Under the pieces are notes generated by a model, which searched no databases, was not told the origin of the DNA, and worked only from the letters and a program-made list of their open reading frames with translations. The position numbers were made by a program, and so were the translations under genes. Positions 17,673-45,523 of a stretch of DNA of 57,004 nucleotides are shown one piece after another. Source of the stretch: Eubacteriales bacterium (GTDB lineage Bacteria; Bacillota; Clostridia; Oscillospirales; CAG-272); the NCBI GenBank assembly GCA_045533435.1, contig JAZSHT010000002.1:1-57004 (forward strand), written 5' to 3'. Position 1 is the first letter of the stretch. Each line of letters begins with the position of its first letter.

Positions 17673-18821
17673 TTAGTTATTCATTTTGATAGGCATTACA
17701 AAATACATATACTTTTCGCCATCAATAATTTCAGGCTCAATAAGTACGCCGGTAAGCTGATTTTTAAATGACATCTTTGTTTTAACATCATCACAAACTC
17801 TAAATACATCAAGTAAGAACTTACAGTTAAATCCAATTATAAGGTCATCGCCATATTCCTTATTTATTGAAATTTCATCATATACATTTCCGTTTGCTGA
17901 TGTTGTTGAAACTGATAGACATTCATCAATAGTGAACTTAACATATGAACGAATACTACCTGCTAAGCGGTCCTCAACGATAAGTGAGGATCTTTCAAGA
18001 GCTGAGCGAAGCTCCCCTGCATTTAATTCAATGCTCATGCTATGTGATGTAGGTAAAATTCTGTTGTAGTCAATATAATCTGAGTCAATAGTTTTTGTAA
18101 AGAATACAAATACGCCTATCTTAAAGATAATATATCTTCTTGAAAGCATTCTAATTTCAATCTCATCCTCTGTATCCTTAACCATCTTTAAAAGCTCTAA
18201 AAGTGTCTTGCCTGGGATAATAAACTTAAGATTAACCTCAGAGCCATCTCTATTCTTATTTACAATATCAGCTTCCTTTTCACAGTATGCAAGTCTGTTA
18301 CCATCGCAGGATACGATTGTAATCTTATTACCCTTAATTTGGAAGTACGCGCCGTTAAATACAGGTCTTGCATCGTTTTGACCGATAGCAAATAAAATTC
18401 TGTTTACAAACTTTCTAAATAAGTGCTGTGGAATTGAAAATCCTCTTTCGCCTGTAAGCTCAGGTAATGTTGGAAAGTCATTACCAGGAAGTGCCTTAAT
18501 ATCAAAATGAGACATTCCGCTTTCAATTATTGTCTTATAAGAGCTGTCAACTGAAATTTTGATTGCTCCATCAGGCATAGCCTTGATAATTTGAAGTAGC
18601 TTTTGAGCGTTGATAATGCATACGCCCTCTTCCTCTACCTCACAGTTAATGTATGTTCTCATTCCCTTTTCAAGGTCATAGGATTGAATCATGCATCTGT
18701 TATCACTTGTGCATGTTAAATGTACGCCCTCTATTGATGGCATTGTGTTCTTTCCTGATACCGTGTACATAGCAGGAATAAGTGCTGATAATAATACGCT
18801 CTTTTCAAAAATAGCAATCAT
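17673..18821 (-). CDS. dnaN: DNA polymerase III beta sliding clamp
   Basis: 382 aa, three-domain clamp-like sequence, RBS aggag, dnaA-dnaN synteny. Confidence 0.92.
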   Translation of the reverse strand: MIAIFEKSVLLSALIPAMYTVSGKNTMPSIEGVHLTCTSDNRCMIQSYDLEKGMRTYINCEVEEEGVCIINAQKLLQIIKAMPDGAIKISVDSSYKTIIESGMSHFDIKALPGNDFPTLPELTGERGFSIPQHLFRKFVNRILFAIGQNDARPVFNGAYFQIKGNKITIVSCDGNRLAYCEKEADIVNKNRDGSEVNLKFIIPGKTLLELLKMVKDTEDEIEIRMLSRRYIIFKIGVFVFFTKTIDSDYIDYNRILPTSHSMSIELNAGELRSALERSSLIVEDRLAGSIRSYVKFTIDECLSVSTTSANGNVYDEISINKEYGDDLIIGFNCKFLLDVFRVCDDVKTKMSFKNQLTGVLIEPEIIDGEKYMYFVMPIKMNN

Positions 18822-18839
18822 TTTGTTTTCTCCTAATTT

Positions 18840-19325
18840 TTATGTATGTTAAATTTTTAAAAAACTAAATTGTTTTTCCACTCTATATTTGATAAACAAA
18901 ATTAAAAATTCAAAAATATAAATTAAATATCATTCAAAAAGCACCGCTTTTTCTTATTAATTCTTTTTAATTAAATTTATTTAATTATAGTAGTAGAAGT
19001 AGTAGTGGGTGTTGATACCGTTGATAACTTTTTAAAGCCTTATAAATCAAAGCTCCGTGGCGATTTTTTATCAACCTAATAGTGTTGACTTCTGTTGATA
19101 AGCTTATTCAGTTATCAAAAAATTTCCACGAAAATCTCCACATCCATTTTTTATCTCTTTTCCACAAACAACCAACTGTTGACTCACTTTTTTCTTAACG
19201 CGAAGAAAAAAGTAAGCAAAAAAGAATCGAAACTGAATAAGAAATCCTTGTCCTATCTGTATCCTTTATTTAACTAAAGTGTACTAATTTTTTCCACATC
19301 TTCCATGTTGAAATATGTTGATAAC
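18840..19325. promoter_or_regulatory. oriC segment in the dnaA-dnaN spacer: AT-rich tract, six DnaA-trios, GC cluster, tandem and scattered DnaA boxes
   Basis: TAG TAG TAG AAG TAG TAG at 18988-19005, tgggtg, then TGTTGATAC and CGTTGATAA at 19010-19027. Further boxes TTATCAACC, TGTTGATAA, TTATCAAAA, TTTTCCACA (x2) and TGTTGATAA extend up to 19323. Confidence 0.8.
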
Positions 19326-19521
19326 TCCGCTTTTCTTAGCGCGAAGAAAAGCTTGGCAAAAGAATCGAAAAGAATTAAAAATATAATAAAACTTTTATTT
19401 TAAATTTTTCTTAACGCGAAGAAAAAAGTAAGAACCTCGACCCACAAAACGAAGTAAACCTCGTGTGGGTGCCCGAGAACCTTGATACTCGTTTACTCGT
19501 ATTAAGCAAAAAAGAATCGAC
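19187..19521. repeat. Three hairpin-tail repeat copies inside the oriC spacer (19187-19232, 19329-19371, 19406-19521, the last with a nested insert)
   Basis: cttttttcttaacgcgaagaaaaaagtaagcaaaaaagaatcgaaa and variants. The insert is cgaCCCACAaaacgaagtaaacctcgTGTGGGtgcccgag. Confidence 0.85.
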
Positions 19522-19557
19522 AAATAACAAAACTTTTATTGAATAAATCATTTATGT

Positions 19558-19585
19558 AGCCGCTGACCACTGACCACTAGCCACT
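19558..19585. repeat. Heptamer array (AGCCGCT GACCACT GACCACT AGCCACT) just 3' of the dnaA stop
   Basis: Read directly. Followed by the palindrome cggataacttgttatccg, which overlaps the dnaA stop. Confidence 0.9.
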
Positions 19586-19597
19586 ACGGATAACTTG

Positions 19598-20986
19598 TTA
19601 TCCGTTAATTTCCCTTATAATCTCCTTAACCATCAAGTTAAAGTCATTATCCTTGTCCATTTTTTCCTTAATGAACTTTTCGCTGGAAACTAGCGTTGTT
19701 CTATCGCGGTTAATTGCATTACCGATTTGGACCTTACTTAGCTTTGTAGTTTTTAATGCTATGTAAACTATTAAATGTCTTGGCTCAACAATTTCCTTAG
19801 TTCTCTTTGTTGATAAAATATCCTCTCTTGATACTCCATACTTCTTTGAAATAGTAAGAATGATTTCATCCATCTTTTTCGTATCTGATGGCTCAGCTTG
19901 AATATATTCTCCAAGTGATGAGGCAACCTTATCAAGTGTAATATCAACGCCCTCTAAAAGCTGAATTGCGCTAAGCTTTTTAATAGCGCCATCAAGCTGT
20001 CTAATTGAGGACTTAATATTTTCTGCAATAAATCTTAAAATTGATGATGGAATATCAAGATTATACTGCTGTACCTTTTGCTTTAAGATAGCAAAGCGAA
20101 GGTCAAATTCTGGTAACTGAATATCAGCAATAAGACCTGACATAAATCTTGTTCTTAATCTATCCTCAAGCGTTTGAATTTCCTGTGGTGGGCGGTCAGA
20201 TGTTAAAATAATCTGCTTTTTAGCCTCATAGATAGCATTAAATGTATTAAATAGCTCCTCTTGCACAGAAATTCTTCCTGCCGCAAATTGAATGTCATCA
20301 ATAAGAAGCACATCAACGCTTCTATACTTATCTCTAAACTGCGCTGTTGTTTTCTTTCCAATAGCATCAACTAATTGATTAGTAAATTCCTCACTGCTTA
20401 TAAGCACAATTTTCTTATCAGGGTATCTATCTAAAATTCTATTTGTAATAGCGTAAAGCAAGTGAGTTTTACCAATTCCGCTTGGACCATAAATAAATAG
20501 CGGATTATACAAATTAGTTGTATCTAGCTTTGAAAAGTCCTTTTCAGCAACTGCCTTAGCTGCTGCGCATGCTAAATCGTTTGATTTACCAACAACGAAG
20601 TTTTCAAATGTATATTGTCTGTTTTCACTTTTATTTTCATTTCTTTGTGGAGCTACGCTTGTGTTATTATCACTTGAATCCTTTATTTCAGGCTCTCTAT
20701 GCTTAATTGATAAATCAATTTCGCCATGCTCCTTAGAGTGAATAATAACCTTTGGAGAATAACCGACAATTTCTGCAAGACATTCGCTTAAATCATCGGA
20801 AAATTTATCCTCAATAATATCCTTTTTCATATCAGTTGAAGCAACAAAAATCGCCTCATCCTTAGTAAGCGCAGTTAATTTTAGCTCAACAAACCAAAGC
20901 TTAACAACAACGCTTGAATGTCTTTTTGAAAGCGCCTCTATTAAGAAAGAATGTATCTCTTGAAGCTCCTGCTCTTTAAAATTCAT
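19598..20986 (-). CDS. dnaA: Chromosomal replication initiator DnaA
   Basis: AAA+ Walker A GPSGIGKTHL, box VII and a domain IV HTH (KRTKEIVEPRHLIVYI). RBS aggag. Confidence 0.97.
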   Translation of the reverse strand: MNFKEQELQEIHSFLIEALSKRHSSVVVKLWFVELKLTALTKDEAIFVASTDMKKDIIEDKFSDDLSECLAEIVGYSPKVIIHSKEHGEIDLSIKHREPEIKDSSDNNTSVAPQRNENKSENRQYTFENFVVGKSNDLACAAAKAVAEKDFSKLDTTNLYNPLFIYGPSGIGKTHLLYAITNRILDRYPDKKIVLISSEEFTNQLVDAIGKKTTAQFRDKYRSVDVLLIDDIQFAAGRISVQEELFNTFNAIYEAKKQIILTSDRPPQEIQTLEDRLRTRFMSGLIADIQLPEFDLRFAILKQKVQQYNLDIPSSILRFIAENIKSSIRQLDGAIKKLSAIQLLEGVDITLDKVASSLGEYIQAEPSDTKKMDEIILTISKKYGVSREDILSTKRTKEIVEPRHLIVYIALKTTKLSKVQIGNAINRDRTTLVSSEKFIKEKMDKDNDFNLMVKEIIREING

Positions 20987-21110
20987 GATTTTCTCCTAAT
21001 TAAAGTATAAATAGTACCTAAGTATAATTATACTATTATATTGTATTTACTATAATTATAATATATATAGCTAGAAAAGTCAAGAAAAATCGCGTTTTTT
21101 TCTACTATTA

Positions 21111-21397
21111 TTATATACTTTTCCACCGACAGTGTGGAAAAGTATATAATTCACTTATTTAAAAGTGAATTATTTTCCACAAGATGAGTGGAAAAGTATA
21201 TAATTCTAAGCGTAGCGAAAGAATTAATTTCCACCGACAGTGTGGAAAAGTATATAATTGACTCCCTAAAAGAGTCAATTATTTCCACATTTTTTGTGGA
21301 AAAGTATATAATTACGAACGCAGAGAAGTAATTTTTTTCAACGATTTTTGTTGAAAAGTATATAATTAACTTATTAAAAATTTAAATAATTTCCACT
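21111..21397. promoter_or_regulatory. oriC upstream DnaA-box cluster: five 54-bp tandem units, each with an inverted box pair TTCCAC-N7/8-GTGGAA + AAGTATATAATT + a variable palindrome
   Basis: GTGGAAAAG/GTTGAAAAG starts at 21134, 21188, 21242, 21296 and 21350, an exact 54-bp spacing. TGTGGAAAA equals the DnaA box TTATCCACA with one mismatch. Confidence 0.85.
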
Positions 21398-21550
21398 TTT
21401 TAATTAAAAAATAGAGTATTTTAAAGTATTTTAAGCGGTTAGAGAAAATAAAAATTTACAAAAATGTAATAAATAAATACTTAAAATAATTAAAATTTAA
21501 TTTTCAGGTTATAAAATAAAATAAAAAAGCAAAAATAATATAAAAAGTAG

Positions 21551-21579
21551 TTGACAATTTCAAAAAAGTGTGATATTAT
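21551..21579 (+). promoter_or_regulatory. Sigma-A promoter: TTGACA, 17-bp spacer, TGa-TATTAT
   Basis: Perfect -35, 17-nt spacer and an extended -10, read directly. Confidence 0.75.
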
Positions 21580-21586
21580 ATCTGTG

Positions 21587-21776
21587 CTTGAAAAGTAAAT
21601 AGCATGTTGTTGTGTAATAGATAGGGGTATCTTTACTTCGCAAAGTGCCTAATCAAAATTCCTTGTGAGCGAGCTCCCAGATGATTTTGATTGGCATACG
21701 CAGCGGATTCGCAAATAAATTTGCGAGCCGTTTCGATACAAGCCCTGCATATTAACGCAACGGAGTGCATTAATAT
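21587..21776 (+). ncRNA. Structured leader or unknown ncRNA of about 190 nt upstream of tRNA-Ser
   Basis: Three hairpins at 21647-21695, 21704-21730 and 21732-21790. The last pairs a leader copy of the tRNA 3' acceptor strand (CCCTGC) with the tRNA 5' acceptor/D region. No family recognised. Confidence 0.35.
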
Positions 21777-21864
21777 GCAGGGGTATCGAAGCGGTCATAA
21801 CGAGGCGGTCTTGAAAACCGTTTGGCCAAAAGCCACGAGGGTTCGAATCCCTCCCCCTGCGCCA
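21777..21864 (+). tRNA. tRNA-Ser (anticodon UGA), CCA encoded
   Basis: Acceptor GCAGGGG/CCCCTGC, anticodon loop cTTGAaa, long variable arm tggccaaaagcca, T-arm gagggTTCGAATccctc, discriminator G and CCA. Confidence 0.9.
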
Positions 21865-26245: not shown

Positions 26246-26416
26246 ATGAAATATATAACTCTTGAAGAACTAAAAGAAAAGGAAAAGCAGCTTATCGAGG
26301 AATATAACGAAAATATGGCGAAAAAATGGAATGTGTTCGCTGAGCATTCTCTTAAATGCCTTGAAGCTGTCAGATATGTAATAAAACTTATTGAAAATAA
26401 AGGAGAAAGACAATGA
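26246..26416 (+). CDS. Hypothetical small protein (56 aa)
   Basis: ATG at 26246. Its stop overlaps the next start (caATGa). Confidence 0.35.
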   Translation: MKYITLEELKEKEKQLIEEYNENMAKKWNVFAEHSLKCLEAVRYVIKLIENKGERQ

Positions 26417-27408
26417 GCAATATAGCTTTAAAAACAAAGACTAAGGAACACGAAATATTAAAAGCGTACCTTGAAGAAAATGCAAGTGATATTCTTGCCG
26501 AAAAAATAAATAACGGTGTTAAAATCCAAAAGGATGGTAAGACACTCATAAATAAAAAGACTCTTGAAACATTTATGTACTTTGCAACCGAAGAAGCTAA
26601 AAAATTGGCTGAAAAGGGTGCAAGAAGTGCTATGATTGAAGATAAGGTAGTGTTTGGTTGGTTAATACACTACTTTGAAGAGGATTCCATTGAAGGACTT
26701 TTATACAACGAGGACGGCAGCGAATATAAAAAGCCCGTTTCCGTTAGAAAGCCTACTCCTAAGCCGGAGGTTAAAATTGAAGCTAAACCACCTAAAAAGA
26801 AGATTGGTGAGGTTATTTCAATTTTTGAGGGCTTAGAGGATATATTCTCTACACCGAAGGACAATGATGGCTCTGATGATAACAATGACGATATAATTGA
26901 GGAAGAAGATCCTGAAATCGAAGAAGAGGTGGTTGAAGAGCCTGCCGAGAAAATTGAATTTAAACCACCTATTGAAGAAAAGCCAAAGCTCACCTTGTAC
27001 GATACATATATGGAAGTGCAAGGCAGATACCCCGACCACATTGTAATGAAGCGTATGGGCGATTTTTACGAGGTTTTTGGCGACAACGCTACTTTACTCG
27101 GTAACGAGTTAAATATGACAATAACCGCCCGAGAATTAGGTAATAATCATAGATTTGCTATGATTGACTTTCCTTTTCATTCCTTTGAGGCTTATGCCGG
27201 TAGAATACTAAAAAAATACTCTATCGTAATAATTGAAAACGGTAAAGAAACTGTAAGAAATAAAATAGAGCCTGTCAAACTTGAAAATGAAGGAATTGTA
27301 GTTGATAAAAAGACGGGTGAGGTAGTTGACGAGGAATTGCCATATAGCATTGAACACGTTGCTATCTTAGCAGAAATATTTGGTATTGAAAATTTGGAGG
27401 GCTGTTAA
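26413..27408 (+). CDS. PcfK/AcrIIA9-like N-terminal domain, acidic linker, MutS domain-I-like C-terminal domain
   Basis: N-terminal KEHEILKAYLEENASDILAEKI...WLIHYFEEDSIEG (PcfK-like pattern). C-terminal YMEVQGRYPDHIVMKRMGDFYEVFGDNATLLGNELNMTIT...FPFHSFEAYAGRILKKYSIVIIE matches the MutS mismatch-binding domain, including Phe-X-Glu. Confidence 0.6.
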   Translation: MSNIALKTKTKEHEILKAYLEENASDILAEKINNGVKIQKDGKTLINKKTLETFMYFATEEAKKLAEKGARSAMIEDKVVFGWLIHYFEEDSIEGLLYNEDGSEYKKPVSVRKPTPKPEVKIEAKPPKKKIGEVISIFEGLEDIFSTPKDNDGSDDNNDDIIEEEDPEIEEEVVEEPAEKIEFKPPIEEKPKLTLYDTYMEVQGRYPDHIVMKRMGDFYEVFGDNATLLGNELNMTITARELGNNHRFAMIDFPFHSFEAYAGRILKKYSIVIIENGKETVRNKIEPVKLENEGIVVDKKTGEVVDEELPYSIEHVAILAEIFGIENLEGC

Positions 27409-27409
27409 A

Positions 27410-28735
27410 ATGAAAATTGAAAAGATTAAGCCTATCCCTAAATATATATTAAAGCTCATTAAAAAGACGGATTTGGAAAGCTATAAGGCTCAAAACGGCT
27501 TTACAAGATACTATTCCTATCTTACTAAAAATGACGGTGAGCTTGTGCAGGTCATAGTTGCAGTAAAAAACAGATATACAAAATGGCTTTGTAAACAGGT
27601 TGTTGTTCACTCTATGAACTCAAAGGATTGCTTTGTAAAGGACATAGCGTTATTTTGGATAGGCGGATATACAACAAATTGGCATCCTGAAGGATATGGA
27701 CGTGAGGTTTGGTATGCTGACGGTGAATGGGGAAAAGCTGATGATAGATATTTCCACATTTGGTGTCCTTGCGTAAACAAAGAATACGTTGAAAAATTCC
27801 CTAAATACAAATACTGTGCATATAAAGAATATCCATATAACGACTTCTTTAAATACCTAACGGTATATGATAAATTTCCACAAGCAGAATATTTAGTGAA
27901 AATGGGCTTGCCCGGAAGAGCCATGAGCATTATGCTTTTAAGACAATGCAAAAAGGACAAGTCCTTCTGCAAGTGGTTATTTAAAAATCGTACTAAAATA
28001 AAATACGGTGGTTACTATGTAACTGCTATTCTCTTGGCTTACAAAAATGGTTGGGAATTAAGTAGAGCTCAATCCTATGAGGCTGCAAGAAAAAGACTCA
28101 TTCACGAGGAAGACTATCAGCCTGTAAGAGATATGCTTAAAAAGCGAGGTGATTATGAGAAATTTATCAAATATATAGAAAGCAACAAAATATCTTACAG
28201 AAGCTATTTTGACTATATTGAAGCCTGCAATCATCTTAACATTGATATGAATATCGACAAAAACAGATATCCTCACGATTTTAAGGTATGGCACGATATA
28301 CGCATAAACGAATATGCAAGTGCTAAGGCAAAAGCTGATGCTATTTTAAGAAAAGAATTTAATGCCAAATTCAAAACAATATCTAAAAAATATGAGTCTT
28401 TACAGGAAAACTGCAAAGGCTCATTTCTTTGTATTATAGCCAAAAGTCCTAACGAGCTTGTTAAAGAAGGAAACGCCTTGAACCATTGTGTAGGAAAAAG
28501 AGGATATGACAAAAAATTCGTTGATGAAGAAACACTTATCTTCTTTGTTCGTAATAAGGAAAATCCTAAAGTACCGCTTGTTACCATTGAATATTCTTTA
28601 TCAAGAAAGCAAGTGCTACAATGCTATGCTTATCACAATTCTGCTCCATCAAAGGAAATAACCGATTATGTTTACAACGAATGGCTGCCACACGCCAACA
28701 AGCAATTAAAGAAAATATTAAAATCTGCTGCGTAA
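27410..28735 (+). CDS. PcfJ-like protein
   Basis: C-terminal EGNALNHCVGKRGYDKKFVDEETLIFFVRNKENPKVPLVTIEY is the PcfJ-family hallmark. Adjacent to a PcfK-like gene as in conjugative elements. Confidence 0.65.
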   Translation: MKIEKIKPIPKYILKLIKKTDLESYKAQNGFTRYYSYLTKNDGELVQVIVAVKNRYTKWLCKQVVVHSMNSKDCFVKDIALFWIGGYTTNWHPEGYGREVWYADGEWGKADDRYFHIWCPCVNKEYVEKFPKYKYCAYKEYPYNDFFKYLTVYDKFPQAEYLVKMGLPGRAMSIMLLRQCKKDKSFCKWLFKNRTKIKYGGYYVTAILLAYKNGWELSRAQSYEAARKRLIHEEDYQPVRDMLKKRGDYEKFIKYIESNKISYRSYFDYIEACNHLNIDMNIDKNRYPHDFKVWHDIRINEYASAKAKADAILRKEFNAKFKTISKKYESLQENCKGSFLCIIAKSPNELVKEGNALNHCVGKRGYDKKFVDEETLIFFVRNKENPKVPLVTIEYSLSRKQVLQCYAYHNSAPSKEITDYVYNEWLPHANKQLKKILKSAA

Positions 28736-38234: not shown

Positions 38235-40043
38235 TCAATAGCAATGGTTTTCAACAAGACATTTCAACTCATCTTTTATCGATATTCTCTGTGTAAACAA
38301 ATACGTATATGCCTTACCTATTGCACCATAAAACAAATGACATTTGGGACATTTAGACTTATCTTTACCAAATGATAAAATATGTGAATTGGCTATATCT
38401 GTATATGGATCAATATAGTATATATGTTTAATACCTAATTGGTAAGCTTTTTTGGAACACAAAACACACGAGCTTGCCGAAGTAAATAAGTTTCCTCCTA
38501 ATATGCCTTCTCCACCATATTTTACTATTTGTAAAAATGCATTTTCTTCAGCGTGCAGAGAACGAGTGTGAACTTGATTTTTTTGTTTTGTCAGTTCACC
38601 GTACTCATCTTTAAAACAGTATGCACACAAACGACCATCTAAGCTTTTTTCCACATCTTCCTTTGCATCTGATATTTTTTTATATTTTTTCTTCATATGT
38701 TTACAAAAATCCAAGTCTTCTATTTCAAAAGTACTAAAGGTATCTTCATCTTTGTTTAAAAGATAATTGTTAACAGATCGCAAATTGCACGGAACTTGTC
38801 CCTCCGCAACACTATTCCAACCAATTGCTTTCACGCTATAATATTTATCTGTAATAACTGCACCCACCTGTCTTGACAAACACCCTGAATTTAATTTTGC
38901 ATTATATGCTATCTGCATACATCTTTCCACATTCGTGGGAGTTACTAATCCTGGATGCTTTATTAGCGTTACATATTTGACAACTTGTTCAGTTATAAAA
39001 TACTTTTCTGTATTTGCTTTTGGATTGTATAAATATATATCTGCCAATTGTGCACAAGCCTCAATATTTTGATTTGTGAACATTTCATGCTGCTCTTTGA
39101 CTTTTCCTGGATATTCTGTATCATCAATCGCTCTTATCTGTTGATTATCATAATTTTCTGCCAATCTTCTTTTTCTTTCTTCATTATCAGTGCTTACTGC
39201 GACAAGAAAAAATGAAGCGTATCTATCTTGAAAATATGTTGCTTCATAAGGATTCCTAATAGCATCCACACATATAAATGTGGGTTGGTTTTTTGTCTTT
39301 TGCACATATCTAATTGCTTTAATAAATCCGTTAGCCCTCTTGGCTATTTCAAACATATGTTTTCCTGTAAAATCTTTGCTTTCTGAAATATCTCCGTGAT
39401 GTCTTATTCTATTTCCTATAGTTTGCAAACAATATGTATACGCATTCACTTTACCACTTTTTTGTGCTAAATTAATAGAGATATTTTGCATCACCTCTCT
39501 AAATTTCATTTGAACACTTGACAATTTAAATAATAATTCGTACTCCATGTTCAATTTATTAAAATCGTATCTATCTAAATTGCCTTTTTCATCAATGCAA
39601 TCTATAATCTTTTGATTTAAGTAATCAAATTCTTCTTTAACAGATGTATTTTTTTCTAAAAGTTTCCGTTGTATTTTTTCAACCACCTCTTTATCAAAGA
39701 TTTTTTCCAACTCAGACATAAATTCATCATAAGTTTTTTGTGCTATAAATGAGAAAATAACATCCGTCATACTGATTCTAAAAAATGAATTCCAGTGTTT
39801 TTTAGCATAGTTATATATAATTTGATACTTTCTCTCTTCTGCATTTTGAAACCCTGTCGACTTAGGCTCATGCAAATTTAAATCTGCAAATTTTTCTTTT
39901 GATAATATGTTAGAAATCGTAGAACACCCTGAACCGGTTCTTCCGGTTAAACCTATGATTACAAATTGTTCTCTTTCTCCATAAATAGTCTTTATTGCTT
40001 GCTCGCATCCTAAAATTTCTTCAACTTGATTTGTCTCACTCAT
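38235..40043 (-). CDS. AvcD/DcdV-like defence protein: N-terminal P-loop kinase-like domain plus C-terminal dCMP/dCTP deaminase domain
   Basis: Walker-A-like GLTGRTGSGCST. Zinc deaminase motifs SLHAEENAF and SSCVLCSKKAY...IYYIDPY. Size and architecture match known dCTP-deaminase antiphage proteins. Confidence 0.7.
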   Translation of the reverse strand: MSETNQVEEILGCEQAIKTIYGEREQFVIIGLTGRTGSGCSTISNILSKEKFADLNLHEPKSTGFQNAEERKYQIIYNYAKKHWNSFFRISMTDVIFSFIAQKTYDEFMSELEKIFDKEVVEKIQRKLLEKNTSVKEEFDYLNQKIIDCIDEKGNLDRYDFNKLNMEYELLFKLSSVQMKFREVMQNISINLAQKSGKVNAYTYCLQTIGNRIRHHGDISESKDFTGKHMFEIAKRANGFIKAIRYVQKTKNQPTFICVDAIRNPYEATYFQDRYASFFLVAVSTDNEERKRRLAENYDNQQIRAIDDTEYPGKVKEQHEMFTNQNIEACAQLADIYLYNPKANTEKYFITEQVVKYVTLIKHPGLVTPTNVERCMQIAYNAKLNSGCLSRQVGAVITDKYYSVKAIGWNSVAEGQVPCNLRSVNNYLLNKDEDTFSTFEIEDLDFCKHMKKKYKKISDAKEDVEKSLDGRLCAYCFKDEYGELTKQKNQVHTRSLHAEENAFLQIVKYGGEGILGGNLFTSASSCVLCSKKAYQLGIKHIYYIDPYTDIANSHILSFGKDKSKCPKCHLFYGAIGKAYTYLFTQRISIKDELKCLVENHCY

Positions 40044-40152: not shown

Positions 40153-40335
40153 TTATCTTATTGATTGTAACGTTTTTCCGTAAACACATTTACTTAACTC
40201 ACCGACGTCAATATTTAATGCTTTAAATATTCGTTGCAGGGTTGACCACTTGGGGTTTGCGTCGCCAAACTCTATGTTTTCAAGCCCTGTAACACTTATA
40301 TCACATAGTTCTGTTAATTTAGCAAAGTAAAGCAT
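40153..40335 (-). pseudogene. 5'-truncated XRE HTH gene (copy 2 of 3)
   Basis: High nucleotide identity to 41892-42131 but lacks the first 20 or so codons. Confidence 0.6.
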
Positions 40336-40357: not shown

Positions 40358-41476
40358 CTATTTTGTTGTTATAAATTCTTTTGGATAGTGGCATAGATTC
40401 TCATTATTCCATAATTTTTCAAAATAGCGGGTAAACAAATTAAATCCTTTACCTCCTTTGGTGAATTTAATGGTTATTGTTTGTTGGCTCACAATATCGT
40501 ACATATATGGACCGATATATAGGTCATCATCCATTCTCCAATAAAAATCCAATGTCATAGCATTATAATATTTAATCTCTATTTTGCCTTTTTCAGATTG
40601 ACTATTTAATTTATTAACCCATGCTACAAGTTTTATAATGGAATCACTTATACTATCAGGATGAACATTTTCTTCAATAGCTCGTTGCTTAGCAAATTCA
40701 CTATTTGGATTCATAACAAGTAGCCTCATTTTCATTCCGTTTTGTAAACATTGTAAAACATCATTTTCACGAGAACTTCTAAAAGAACTAAGTCCAAAGG
40801 CGATCCCGTCGATTTTTTTTACATTATGTTCTTCTAATCTTGGATCTGATTCAGCATTTTTTTCCGCTCTGGTTTTAAATATTTTTTCTATTCCCCAAGA
40901 ATTAAATCCGTCGATTTTCCTTATAAAATTAGAATCTATACCAGAACAATTTAATTCAGTTCCTTTAATCCATCCAGCATAAGGCGTATTATTTATTAAT
41001 TCTTGAATAGAGGTTTTAATTTTTGATATCAACCCTCCAATATCTGTCCAAAAAGCAACTTGCATATTGCTATCTAAAATTCTTCGTTTGAATTGTTCAA
41101 GCCTTTTTCGACCTTTCTGTGTTTTTTCTACCTTTTCAACAGGTAAAAGATTATAATCTTTATACATAAAAACAACTATTGGTTTTTTTATACTCAATGC
41201 AAAATTATATTCCTTTTCAGTAAATGAAATTTTCTTATCATTGGTACTACTCTCATTAGTTAAAGAGCCGTACCTTCCAGCTATGACAAGCAAATAGAAA
41301 TCACTTTCTATAATATCTTGTTGAATTATCTCCCATGATTTTTTGTTTGCAGCAGGAAACAACTCCATTCCAGCAGGAATGCACTTACTTTCAAGTAAAG
41401 CTTGCATTATAGCTTGTCTCTCGGTCTCAAGATCCTTTTGAGTTGAACTTACAAAAACTTGATACTTTTTATTCAT
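40358..41476 (-). CDS. DUF4062 (TIR/SLOG-like) N-terminal domain fused to a PLD-fold-like C-terminal domain without an HKD motif
   Basis: N-terminal YQVFVSSTQKDLETERQAIMQALLESKCIPAGMELFPA...DFYLLVIAGRYGS fits the DUF4062 pattern. C-terminal MRLLVMNPNS...IEIKYYNAMTLDFYWRMDDDLYIGPY...LFTRYFEKLW is DUF5919/PLD-like. No HxKxxxxD. Confidence 0.5.
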   Translation of the reverse strand: MNKKYQVFVSSTQKDLETERQAIMQALLESKCIPAGMELFPAANKKSWEIIQQDIIESDFYLLVIAGRYGSLTNESSTNDKKISFTEKEYNFALSIKKPIVVFMYKDYNLLPVEKVEKTQKGRKRLEQFKRRILDSNMQVAFWTDIGGLISKIKTSIQELINNTPYAGWIKGTELNCSGIDSNFIRKIDGFNSWGIEKIFKTRAEKNAESDPRLEEHNVKKIDGIAFGLSSFRSSRENDVLQCLQNGMKMRLLVMNPNSEFAKQRAIEENVHPDSISDSIIKLVAWVNKLNSQSEKGKIEIKYYNAMTLDFYWRMDDDLYIGPYMYDIVSQQTITIKFTKGGKGFNLFTRYFEKLWNNENLCHYPKEFITTK

Positions 41477-41692
41477 ATATTATTCTCCTTTCAAATTAGG
41501 AACTAAATTACTTGTGGTTTTTCTAAGATATTTGTTTTTCCAACATACAATTACCAACAAATTTCGACATTATATTTGAAAATTTGTTGGAGCATAATAG
41601 AATAAAACTACAATATATGCTTTATTAATGGTAAATTTAAATTAAATTTGTGTCATAGTTTCAAAGAACACAAAACTTTATTTACCGTTTTG

Positions 41693-41851
41693 TTATCCTG
41701 TGATAACTTTAATTATTTTATATTCGTTATTAGTATCAATTTGATTAAACTTTTCTATCGCTTCAAAATAGTTATCTGCTTCTATCACAACTTCATACAA
41801 ACAAGAATATCTTGCTTTTTTAGATTGATATACTACAGTATATGTATTCAT
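41693..41851 (-). CDS. Hypothetical small protein (52 aa) downstream of XRE copy 3
   Basis: ATG at 41851 with RBS aaggagag. MNTYTVVYQSKKARYSCLYEVVIEADNYFEAIEKFNQIDTNNEYKIIKVITG. Not in the supplied track. Confidence 0.4.
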   Translation of the reverse strand: MNTYTVVYQSKKARYSCLYEVVIEADNYFEAIEKFNQIDTNNEYKIIKVITG

Positions 41852-41891: not shown

Positions 41892-42131
41892 CTACGTTTT
41901 AACTGATGTAAATGTTTTTCCGTAAACACATTTGCTTAGCTCGCCGACATCAACATTTAATGCTTTAAATATTCGTTGCAGGGTTGTCCACTTAGGGTTT
42001 GCGTCGCCGAGCTCTATGTTTTCAAGTCCTGTAACGCTTATGTCGCTTAATTCTGCTAATTTAGCGACAGTAAGGTGTTTTCTTTCTCTTTTATCTCGTA
42101 TAAATCTGCCAACATCATAATAAATTGTCAT
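41892..42131 (-). CDS. XRE-family HTH regulator (copy 3 of 3)
   Basis: 79 aa. Near-identical HTH to copies 1 and 2, and the 5' leader is also similar to that of copy 1. Confidence 0.8.
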   Translation of the reverse strand: MTIYYDVGRFIRDKRERKHLTVAKLAELSDISVTGLENIELGDANPKWTTLQRIFKALNVDVGELSKCVYGKTFTSVKT

Positions 42132-42398
42132 TTCAGCACCTCTAATATAAATGATTTTAGAGGTATTGAATTTGATTAAATTGCTCGCCTATGTTAACAT
42201 ACTTGTGATTGGTTTATTAGTATTTATACAATGATATTAATAGTTTAGTTTTATGTGGTTTGAAGAGAGATAGCGGAAATCCGCTATCCCTCTCCTTGAA
42301 TGAGTTGCAAAAAATTCAAGTTACTTTAAAATCATTTATTTTTTAATTAATAATTTTTGATTTATCTACTATATGCAAGGAAAATCATATAACTTGTT

Positions 42399-42821
42399 TT
42401 AATATTTCTTTTCAAATTCACTGACAAGAACATCTGCTTCGCCACCTGTCCCGTAAACGGTATAAGTAACAGTTGCTCTGTATGTGCCACTTTTGGTTAG
42501 TTGAATAGAGTGTTCACCATCACAAAAATCTAAAGTTGATTCATCAGTCCAGAATGCACCATCTACATCATTCCACCACCATAAAAATTTCTTTTCTATC
42601 TTTGTTTCTACAACAATTTTTGTTGTAATTTCTGGATATCCATAGCATGTATATGATACAGTAGCCATGCCGCTTTCTTCAATTACAAATATGGCTTCTG
42701 TTGTGTCAGTGTTATTTAATAGTGGCATTATTTCATTTTCTATAGCAAATGAAGGCACTACCATAGCAAACAACATTACAACAAGCATAGCAAAAGAAAT
42801 TAATTTCTTAGAATTTTTCAT
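42399..42821 (-). CDS. Secreted hypothetical protein (140 aa)
   Basis: N-terminal signal peptide MKNSKKLISFAMLVVMLFAMVVPSFA. Confidence 0.5.
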   Translation of the reverse strand: MKNSKKLISFAMLVVMLFAMVVPSFAIENEIMPLLNNTDTTEAIFVIEESGMATVSYTCYGYPEITTKIVVETKIEKKFLWWWNDVDGAFWTDESTLDFCDGEHSIQLTKSGTYRATVTYTVYGTGGEADVLVSEFEKKY

Positions 42822-44782: not shown

Positions 44783-45523
44783 TTGGGAAAAATTAAGATT
44801 TTATCATCAAATCAGCTTAAAATTTTAGCTTGTATTACAATGCTAATTGATCATATTGGATATTTTATATTTCCTCAAATTACCATATTACGATTGATAG
44901 GCAGACTCACCTTTCCTATATTTGCATTTTTAATATCTGAGGGTGCAAAATATACCAAAAACAAGGTAAGGTATCTTTTAACTGTGGGTGCTTTAGGTAT
45001 TGTGTGGCAAGCTTATTTAATAATATTTAGGTCAGATTATCATTTTAATGTACTAATTACATTTTCAATTTCAATAATTATAATCTATACAATGGATTAT
45101 TTTAAAAAATGCTTTTTTGACAAGCAATGCAAAATTTATATAAAGATACTGACATTTATACTGTTTGTTTTTGTGGCAATATCACCATATTTAATAGCTA
45201 AGGTATTTAGCTGGTTTCATTACGAATACGGCTTTTATGGTGCTATGTGTGCAGTTTTTGCAAGTGCTCCTGTGCTAAATAAAACAGATGCACCAGACTA
45301 TTTAAAATGGTTTGATAAAATTCCTATAAGAGTATTATGTATGGCTATTCCTCTGTTTATGTATAGCAGAAACAATAAAATAAGCATGATATTCTATTTT
45401 GTAGGCTTATTACTTATGCTTTTATACTCTGAAAAAAGAGGAAAAGCAAATTTAAAATACTTTTTCTACATTTTCTATCCTGCACATCTTTTAATTTTAC
45501 ATTTAATAGATTATTTAATTTAA
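44783..45523 (+). CDS. TraX-family membrane protein
   Basis: LKILACITMLIDHIGYFIF...GRLTFPIFAFLISEGAKYTKN is typical of the TraX family. TTG start. Confidence 0.7.
   Translation: MGKIKILSSNQLKILACITMLIDHIGYFIFPQITILRLIGRLTFPIFAFLISEGAKYTKNKVRYLLTVGALGIVWQAYLIIFRSDYHFNVLITFSISIIIIYTMDYFKKCFFDKQCKIYIKILTFILFVFVAISPYLIAKVFSWFHYEYGFYGAMCAVFASAPVLNKTDAPDYLKWFDKIPIRVLCMAIPLFMYSRNNKISMIFYFVGLLLMLLYSEKRGKANLKYFFYIFYPAHLLILHLIDYLI

Follow-up and report, generated by a model that had tools for sequence, protein, structure and literature searches.

What does a protein do that joins a DUF4062 domain to a phospholipase D (PLD)-like domain? The question is raised by a gene on the reverse strand of the window analysed here, the 57,004-nt stretch that makes up positions 1 to 57,004 of contig JAZSHT010000002.1 (Eubacteriales bacterium, assembly GCA_045533435.1). 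The first-pass annotation of this DNA had listed the gene as a candidate uncharacterised defence effector. The open reading frame (ORF) lies at exactly 40358..41476 (-), as given there, and its product of 372 aa (plus stop codon) contains both of the quoted peptides. We assign a probability of about 0.68 to the conclusion that the DUF4062::PLD-like gene is a single-protein abortive-infection system, in which a catalytically dead PLD-fold auxiliary (AUX) domain senses infection and NAD+ hydrolysis dependent on residue E89 arrests the cell. The homology, motifs, fold, modularity and genomic contexts behind this conclusion come from our own analysis. The NAD+ glycohydrolase (NADase) chemistry, the abortive phenotype and the requirement for the AUX domain come from two preprints, on the relatives KpSwz and Eva01, and we infer that they carry over to the protein described here.

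The N-terminal assignment to DUF4062 made in the first pass held. Residues 6-93 match the entire 82-position Pfam profile (PF13271) at E=1.6e-25, with 89.6 bits, the gathering cutoff being 24.7. The Pfam model spans only half of the true domain, about residues 1-164 (10.64898/2026.05.01.722283), and on the combined evidence of Pfam, KpSwz, Eva01, AlphaFold2 and Foldseek we place the predicted TIR-like NADase effector domain at residues 1-165 (40982..41476, (-)). A PDB sequence search matched query residues 2-178 to chain residues 3-172 of KpSwz (PDB 10wc, 11cq, 11cv) at E=2.2e-32, a profile search against KpSwz gave E=5.9e-49, and Eva01 (WP_000072388.1, plasmid pSAS) shares 41% identity with query residues 4-190 (E=2e-34). 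These alignments identify E89 as the predicted catalytic glutamate, equivalent to KpSwz E97 and Eva01 E87; its codon was checked and lies at 41210..41212 (-). The equivalence to KpSwz E97 was drawn because the deposited chain is an E97A mutant whose A84 aligns with query E89. Residues F8, W48-E49, E89-Y90 and W169 align with Eva01 F11, W51-E52, E87-Y88 and W162, W169 also aligns with KpSwz W176, and the motif S84-F-T-E-K-E89-Y90 fits the Evangelion core motif acidic-SYT-E-Y, the other members of that core set being an N-terminal aromatic F, a Q/W/E motif and the junction W. No variation is seen at E89 and W169 across 55 aligned orthologues (39-75% identity), and almost none at F8, W48 and E87.

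Structure prediction points the same way. The full-length AlphaFold2 model (pLDDT 85) contains a beta-alpha TIR-like domain of five strands alternating with helices, and Foldseek searches with the N-terminal domain returned the TIRs of RPP1, SARM1, SPARTA and RPS4, plus BcmB. The domain had been described as "TIR/SLOG-like"; the TIR-like half of that description is borne out by fold and by sequence relatives, which are TIR as well as nucleoside 2-deoxyribosyltransferase (NDT)-like proteins, and the SLOG-like half found no support. Osinski et al. 2026 name the same relatives for DUF4062 (10.64898/2026.05.01.722283). In view of the homology to KpSwz and Eva01, the conserved motifs and the TIR fold matches, the prediction that the N-terminal half is an NADase effector domain, an assignment by homology, is well supported. 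Residues 146-170 (40967..41041, (-)) form a putative stalk and junction, consisting of a long helix (146-163 in the AlphaFold2 model) and a G168-W169 motif that includes the invariant tryptophan. A variable interdomain linker follows at residues 171-190 (40907..40966, (-)), with a mean pairwise identity of 17% and low model confidence (pLDDT <50 at 171-176).

It had been stated in the first pass that this protein fits no named defence system. DUF4062 single-gene NADase systems were, however, named in 2026 as Swarozyc and Evangelion. DUF4062 is a TIR-like NADase that turns NAD+ into ADP-ribose plus nicotinamide, and a single Swarozyc gene gives abortive-infection defence (10.64898/2026.05.01.722283). 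In KpSwz, from Klebsiella pneumoniae, E97 and the AUX domain are both required, E97 being needed for NADase activity as well as for defence; at rest the protein is an autoinhibited head-to-head dimer with intertwined stalks beneath the TIR-like domains, and the enzyme is activated when its helix-turn-helix (HTH)/winged-helix AUX domain binds the phage portal (10.64898/2026.05.01.722283). Evangelion systems (Ibarra-Chavez et al. 2026) are single genes whose DUF4062 core is conserved and whose AUX region is diversified. Eva01 lowers NAD+, is linked to phage recombination functions, and loses defence upon mutation of F11, E87 or W162 or truncation of its AUX region (10.64898/2026.06.25.731849).

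Our protein resembles Swarozyc in being encoded by a single gene, in the homologous DUF4062 domain and stalk over query residues 2-178, and in keeping the catalytic glutamate and the junction tryptophan; the same output would be expected. It differs in host, a gut Clostridia metagenome-assembled genome (MAG) rather than Enterobacteriaceae, and in its AUX domain, which has a PLD fold and is DUF5919-like, whereas the five tested Swz proteins carry an HTH/winged-helix domain. Because of this different AUX domain, and because the alignment to the 326-aa KpSwz chain stops at chain residue 172-179 (query residue 178), the trigger probably differs from the portal sensed by Swarozyc. The likeness to Evangelion likewise covers the single gene, the DUF4062 core with its auxiliary region, and the highlighted residues, which are kept at 41% core identity to Eva01. 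In a comparison made with Eva01 only (S. aureus pMW2/pSAS), similarity was not detectable past query residue 190. The AUX region of Eva01 is unannotated and has been associated with recombination/replication intermediates on genetic and electrophoretic mobility shift evidence (10.64898/2026.06.25.731849). Eva01 is plasmid-borne with resistance genes, in contrast to the architecture described here, which no PLSDB plasmid carries. The AUX region is diversified in Evangelion, whereas it is the more conserved half in the lineage studied here. Judged by its sequence, the DUF4062::PLD-like protein is most likely a DUF4062-type system of the Swarozyc/Evangelion kind with a different AUX domain.

That domain, the proposed sensor, was delimited by AlphaFold2, Foldseek and Pfam as a PLD-fold, HKD-less, DUF5919-like module at residues 191-358 (40403..40906, (-)). 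An AlphaFold2 model of residues 185-372 reached pLDDT 91.3 and pTM 0.86, and all of its top 50 Foldseek matches in the PDB are PLD-superfamily proteins (probability 0.77-1.0, TMq 0.37-0.56), in agreement with the PLD-like fold proposed in the first pass. The matches are led by TrmBL2 (5bqt, E=5.8e-6), TrmB and FAM83 proteins including FAM83B, and further include vaccinia F13, PssA, NucT, Zucchini, NgoAVII and PPK1; PLD proteins also rank first in the BFVD viral structure library. The best structural matches, the C-terminal domain of TrmB/TrmBL2 (2f5t, 3qph, 5bqt) and the DUF1669 domain of FAM83 (5lzk, 5qhm), with E values of 6e-6 to 8e-4 and probability 1.0, share a PLD fold that lacks a working HKD site. 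In the TrmB sugar-binding domain and in FAM83 this fold serves binding, not catalysis. With identities of only 11-15% and TM-scores of 0.44-0.51, the match is one of fold and not of close homology. These proteins also differ in being transcription/chromatin factors or kinase scaffolds that are not joined to killing domains.

The missing HKD motif, remarked on in the first pass, was confirmed: HxK is absent throughout the query, and HxKxxxxD occurs in 1/55 orthologues and 1/117 module representatives, which is chance level. The 55-orthologue alignment has no invariant histidine in the AUX domain, and the sole frequent column is H217, at 85%. Since the HxK(x)4D test failed, the AUX domain was taken not to be a catalytic PLD. 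The most conserved motif of the module is Y312-W-R314-M-D316-x5-G322-P323-Y324 (40505..40543, (-)), with family-wide conservation of Y at 87%, R at 82% (plus K at 9%), D at 96%, G at 97% and P at 93%. Read by eye, it looks like a degenerate HKD-type strand-turn-strand in which H has become Y and K has become R. Conservation of 82-100% across the family extends to R203, D223, R233, R251, P257, E269, Y312, R314, D316, G322, P323, S330, F352 and W356. Among the DUF4062 orthologues the AUX domain varies less than the TIR core (mean pairwise identity 61% vs 53%, higher in 82% of pairs), a pattern that argues for a fixed ligand or interface.

By sequence, DUF5919 (PF19319) is matched by 32/147 family representatives at E<=1e-3 (best 2.7e-9), several orthologues carry a DUF5919 annotation, and PLDc_2 is matched by 1/147, at 1.2e-4. 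On these profile matches the query AUX domain is a divergent relative of DUF5919, not a core member. In the PDB sequence search the AUX domain had no match, KpSwz being matched by the N-terminus only. We found no mention of DUF5919 in any searchable paper and no mention of a PLD or DUF5919 AUX domain in the text of either DUF4062 preprint or in one Osinski supplement; a literature search for a PLD-like sensor with TIR returned nothing relevant.

A search with the module alone against 1.84 billion representatives (E<=1e-3) gave at least 389 clusters at 50% identity, and architectures were surveyed among the best 150 representatives of these 389 clusters. Transmembrane (TM) N-termini are present in 93/150, comprising 72 compact proteins of two TM segments plus the module, 18 with a C-terminal extension, and 3 long multi-TM proteins. 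Soluble N-terminal domains are found in 14/150 and include DUF4062, TIR_2 (2e-10), a CAP12/Pycsar-type TIR (PF10137, 8.8e-27) and others; NDT-like N-termini score 5e-5 on module proteins, under the Pfam cutoff. The remaining representatives are module-only proteins or fragments. In proteins of ~241 aa, which share with our protein only the C-terminal half (60-67% identical), a 2-TM hairpin takes the place of DUF4062. PADLOC 2.0 and NCBIfam gave no match either for this 2-TM variant or for the DUF4062::PLD-like protein.

Larger architectures also occur. In P0178 (859 aa) and P0183 (838 aa) the module is central, preceded by a ~440-aa N-terminus without a known family and followed by a ~230-aa C-terminal extension. 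P0121 (476 aa) and P0123 (380 aa) include, between them, one possible DUF2971 N-terminus and one N-terminus that matches the PADLOC candidate PDC-S60 (1e-10). The extension of the 18 TM variants (460-490 aa) amounts to about 200 aa at the C-terminus; a second tandem module copy, which would make a PLD pseudo-dimer, was considered for these proteins and rejected (hhalign probability 0.2%).

One constant domain combined with exchangeable membrane and NADase killing domains is the signature of an immune receiver or sensor. Because the PLD-like domain stays constant while the N-terminal effector is exchanged, it is better read as a sensor or regulatory AUX domain than as a second effector. A broader claim would be that the HKD-less, DUF5919-like PLD module is an unrecognised, widespread immune sensor that defines an unnamed single-gene abortive-infection family of at least 389 clusters and detects a conserved phosphate-bearing cue; we advance it tentatively, at somewhat less than even odds. 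It would have the receiver wired mostly to 2-TM hairpins and also to DUF4062, TIR_2, Pycsar-type TIR and NDT-like killing domains, and this part of the claim is held just as tentatively.

We examined where relatives of the gene reside. A homology search returned the identical protein (100%, P0001) and an orthologue family of 39-77% identity, and a cluster look-up placed the same protein on ENA contigs of 4.1 kb and 19 kb. In a survey of one genome per species (185,579 species), the full two-domain architecture was present in 5 of the best 80 related loci, all of them from gut Clostridia (Ruminococcus, Acutalibacteraceae, Clostridium). On their own, the N-terminal part and the module were each found in many phyla. 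Neither PLSDB plasmids nor INPHARED phages carry the full architecture; they gave only N-terminal Eva01-like or Swz-like matches.

Several orthologues lie on mobile elements or beside defence genes. One, 70% identical, is carried next to a TIR_2 gene by a conjugative element with a relaxase, MobC and a giant MutS_I/SNF2 protein (locus L001, 345-6844 and 9324-10230). Its flanks hold, besides the TIR_2 gene, a 1249-aa protein that matches no family and, downstream, two small ORFs of 180 and 123 aa, the longer with a predicted TM N-terminus. Another orthologue sits inside an integrase/KAP-NTPase/RHS island, and another beside a P4 cII/Beta/RES (gop-beta-cII-type) system and a PBECR nuclease. These positions, together with the close kinship to the validated KpSwz and Eva01, sustain the defence reading of the first pass.

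The 2-TM-module loci that we checked in species-representative genomes (n=7) include 3/7 within or next to type I restriction-modification (R-M) genes. In L014 (5219-16500) the gene lies between HsdM/HsdS and HsdR; in L016 (1589-11480) it follows HsdS and has a PDC-S11 neighbour; in L031 (2009-8854) it accompanies type I R-M genes and a HEC-04 neighbour. The hosts of L014, L031 and L016 are labelled Treponemataceae, Treponema and Myxococcaceae (a MAG), and ORFs of about 250 aa without annotation are also present in these loci. Among the other loci, L017 has a PDC-S22 neighbour and L010 has PDC-S04 and PDC-S72/SoFic neighbours; for L013 there is nothing but a weak mad3-like ATPase at a distance of two genes, and the neighbours of L082 gave no match to a defence model. 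HTH-Fic and R-M genes accompany a further 2-TM version in a serine-recombinase island, and one other is solitary. No neighbour is common to the DUF4062 and 2-TM loci across the contexts examined (>15). Because no neighbour is kept across contexts and several copies are solitary, we regard the DUF4062::PLD-like gene as a stand-alone unit.

These observations can be assembled into a mechanism. Residues 1-165 would act as a TIR-like NAD+ glycohydrolase with E89 as the catalytic residue, helix 146-163 and the G168-W169 junction would correspond to the stalk region of Swarozyc, and residues 191-358, the catalytically dead PLD-fold domain, would act as the sensor. Upon infection the sensor would engage its cue, and the protein would rearrange or oligomerise. 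The signal would pass through the W169 junction and the stalk to release the autoinhibited TIR-like domains, and E89-dependent NAD+ hydrolysis would then arrest the cell. As to the cue, the AUX domain out-conserves the effector and keeps an invariant set rich in Arg, Asp, Glu, Tyr and Ser at what would be the remnant of the PLD phosphate-binding site, and for this reason we favour a conserved phosphate-bearing ligand, such as a nucleic-acid feature or nucleotide, over a fast-evolving phage surface. Drawn from the conservation pattern and fold ancestry, this identity of the cue is a guess.

The same features would also suit an effector arm of a signalling system, in which the PLD-like domain binds a second messenger made by an unlinked or variable enzyme and thereby switches the NADase on. 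The constant receiver joined to a TIR-type NADase or 2-TM effector recalls PycTIR and PycTM of Pycsar, the TIR-SAVED and TM effectors of CBASS, and ThsA of Thoeris, and the set of architectures (2-TM, TIR, Pycsar-type TIR and NDT-like) is that of Pycsar/CBASS effectors; one member of the module family bears a CAP12/Pycsar-type TIR itself. Polar module residues that are highly conserved across the family, as for a fixed small ligand, an AUX domain more conserved than its effector, and a nearest fold relative, the TrmB C-terminal domain, that binds a small molecule (a sugar) all fit as well. The known receivers, however, are cNMP-binding, SAVED or SLOG/Macro domains of other folds and rely on an adjacent signal-making enzyme. 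In neither the window nor the homologue contexts examined does a cyclase or CD-NTase partner adjoin the gene, and across >15 contexts no cyclase, TIR-signal generator or other gene is conserved beside either the DUF4062 or the 2-TM versions. Many copies stand by themselves amid housekeeping genes, and no signal-making gene flanks the gene in the window. We consider a second messenger of this kind unlikely.

If the C-terminal domain were instead an active, non-canonical PLD phosphodiesterase or nuclease, the protein would be a two-enzyme effector, or DUF4062 would be its regulatory part. The PLD-superfamily fold, with the nucleases NucT, Zucchini and NgoAVII among its matches, would allow this, as would the family-wide conservation of R203, D223, R233, R251, E269, Y312, R314, D316 and S330 and the one family member that reaches PLDc_2 by sequence (1.2e-4). 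Catalysis would nevertheless have to proceed without the nucleophilic histidine, HxK being absent from the query and at chance level in the family; the best structural matches are non-catalytic, and the DUF4062 catalytic residues are strictly conserved. The swapped partners of the module are all typical killing domains, which makes it the constant receiver. An active C-terminal enzyme is, on this balance, improbable.

A role outside defence, as a housekeeping or regulatory enzyme of NAD+ or nucleotide metabolism in gut Clostridia, would agree with the ordinary metabolic neighbourhoods of about half of the orthologues. We find it very hard to reconcile with the patchy spread of the full architecture, found in very few of 185,579 species genomes, with a genomic position that is different each time and includes mobile elements and defence neighbours, and with the close homology to two validated defence proteins.

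Least credible of all is a locally regulated cassette, in which DUF4062 would be a toxin and the upstream XRE gene (79 aa, 41892-42131, (-)) and/or 52-aa ORF (41693-41851, with its own good ribosome-binding site, RBS) a needed antitoxin or regulator: the three genes are co-directional with short gaps and XRE-headed modules recur within the island, but the XRE and 52-aa proteins are encoded in 0/102 related loci (tblastn) and are absent upstream of close orthologues, a 216-bp gap with promoter-like elements parts the 52-aa and DUF4062 genes, and 24 other contigs carry the 52-aa gene but no DUF4062 gene. The "XRE, 52-aa and DUF4062 cassette" proposed as a unit in the first pass, considered as a conserved arrangement, was rejected, as the ORFs upstream of close orthologues held nothing comparable.

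Some observations weigh against the single-protein system with a dead-PLD sensor. The only C-terminal Pfam signal of the query, to DUF5919, reaches 16.3 bits, under the 23.5 cutoff, and the charged residues that are strongly conserved in the AUX domain could equally mark a non-canonical active site. The arrangement of the two domains is uncertain in the full-length model (pTM 0.52). About half of the orthologue contexts (4 of about 8) are without an adjacent defence gene, being solitary or at a contig end, among housekeeping genes. Finally, the AUX region is diversified in the published systems and the more conserved part here, so the logic of sensing may differ.

Within the window, the DUF4062::PLD-like gene has a strong RBS, AAAGGAGA, 8 nt ahead of its ATG. 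The 216-bp upstream intergenic region (41477..41692, (-)), defined by sequence inspection, contains this RBS and sigma-70-like hexamers, with consensus promoter-like sites at 41656-41628 and 41641-41612. Such sites show no enrichment over shuffled sequence in the 216-bp region; it is probably the gene's own promoter. Upstream of the XRE gene, a GC-rich perfect hairpin (ggagagggatagcgg...ccgctatctctcttc, 42262-42295, (-)) separates it from a 140-aa ORF (42399-42821); the hairpin probably terminates the upstream gene and would be where the XRE transcription unit begins.

The 52-aa ORF has a close 48-aa homologue that recurs on 24 contigs of another island (L104, 1-10147; also L105 and L106), where there is no DUF4062 gene, and the small 52-aa-type gene is a real gene. 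Islands of the L104 type also hold a 1172-aa Trypsin_2 protein, two XRE-DUF6514 pairs, DUF4326, an integrase, a TIR protein and a SIR2-STALD protein.

On the other side of the DUF4062::PLD-like gene, an AvcD-type anti-phage dCTP deaminase of 602 aa (38235-40043, (-)) was identified with the PADLOC dCTPase model (1.8e-117) and NCBIfam (2e-102). The NCBIfam anti-phage dCTP deaminase score is 343 bits, under the 400-bit cutoff; the protein has a P-loop N-terminus and a dCMP/cytidine deaminase C-terminus, and its exact sequence is absent from a 15-billion-protein collection. The 52-aa ORF, the XRE gene and the AvcD-type gene were found as described in the first pass, except that the AvcD-like gene is not directly adjacent to the DUF4062 gene, because a 60-aa ORF (40153-40335, (-)) intervenes. 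This ORF copies the 79-aa XRE gene at ~90% DNA identity but is truncated at the 5' end, where about 19 codons (HTH_3 positions 1-16) are missing. The two XRE copies form a direct repeat of ~170 bp on either side of the 52-aa and DUF4062 genes, and this repeat may reflect past recombination between XRE-headed modules.

The deaminase beside the gene and an RHS toxin nearby belong to a wider island. The DUF4062 gene lies inside a low-GC stretch (about 0.28-0.33) that starts near a tRNA-Ser beside dnaA and dnaN and contains PcfK/PcfJ-like genes, a RelB-MGMT fusion, the RHS toxin, a holin, the AvcD-type deaminase, a sigma-70-domain gene and TraX. The dnaN and dnaA genes (-) and, after them, tRNA-Ser(tga) at 21777-21864 occupy 17673-21864; the island adjoins the dnaA-dnaN region, with the tRNA-Ser possibly as its insertion site. 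No integrase was seen among the window ORFs scanned. Mobile-element genes lie at 26413-28735 and 44783-45523, namely a PcfK-like gene with a MutS_I domain, a PcfJ-like gene and, later, TraX. In an unusual combination, a 187-aa protein at 29315-29878 (-) joins two domains, a RelB antitoxin (1.7e-13) and an MGMT-type DNA-binding domain (2e-7).

The 2013-aa RHS-repeat protein (30446-36487, (+); RHS_repeat 3.5e-16) has a variable C-terminal end, and directly after its gene lies a 101-aa ORF without a family match (36497-36802, (+)), an arrangement as in a polymorphic toxin with its immunity gene. One small HTH_11/DeoR-type regulator stands just ahead of the RHS gene (30045-30413, (+)) and another just past the AvcD-like gene (37687-38043, (-); PADLOC WYL model 1.9e-11). 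As such regulators adjoin both the RHS and the AvcD-like genes, the modules of the island tend to bring their own small regulator. Ahead of a phage holin of the Hol44 family (37336-37623, (+); 4.7e-25) lies a 95-aa ORF whose product has a hydrophobic segment at its C-terminus (region 37037-37623, (+)). No further phage genes were seen near this holin, which may be a prophage remnant or a release module for the RHS toxin.

DUF4062 NADases were recognised as immune effectors only in 2026, and their known triggers hinge wholly on the auxiliary domain. Here the effector is joined to a different, well-folded and highly conserved receiver that elsewhere is fused to membrane and TIR effectors and is also placed at classic hotspots of defence, type I R-M operons among them. 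Because natural effector swaps sit on a sensor that is 60-67% identical, the idea that the sensor sets specificity can be tested cleanly. The DUF4062 and 2-TM versions are missed by PADLOC 2.0 and NCBIfam, so that defence annotations made with these models lack them in gut Clostridia, spirochaetes and Bacteroidota. If the proposed mechanism is true, discovery of the ligand would add a new pseudo-enzyme sensor class, the dead PLD, to bacterial immunity, and sensing of a phosphate cue would differ in logic from the portal-sensing Swarozyc. The PLD-like module itself is the more interesting lead, as a candidate new sensor family.

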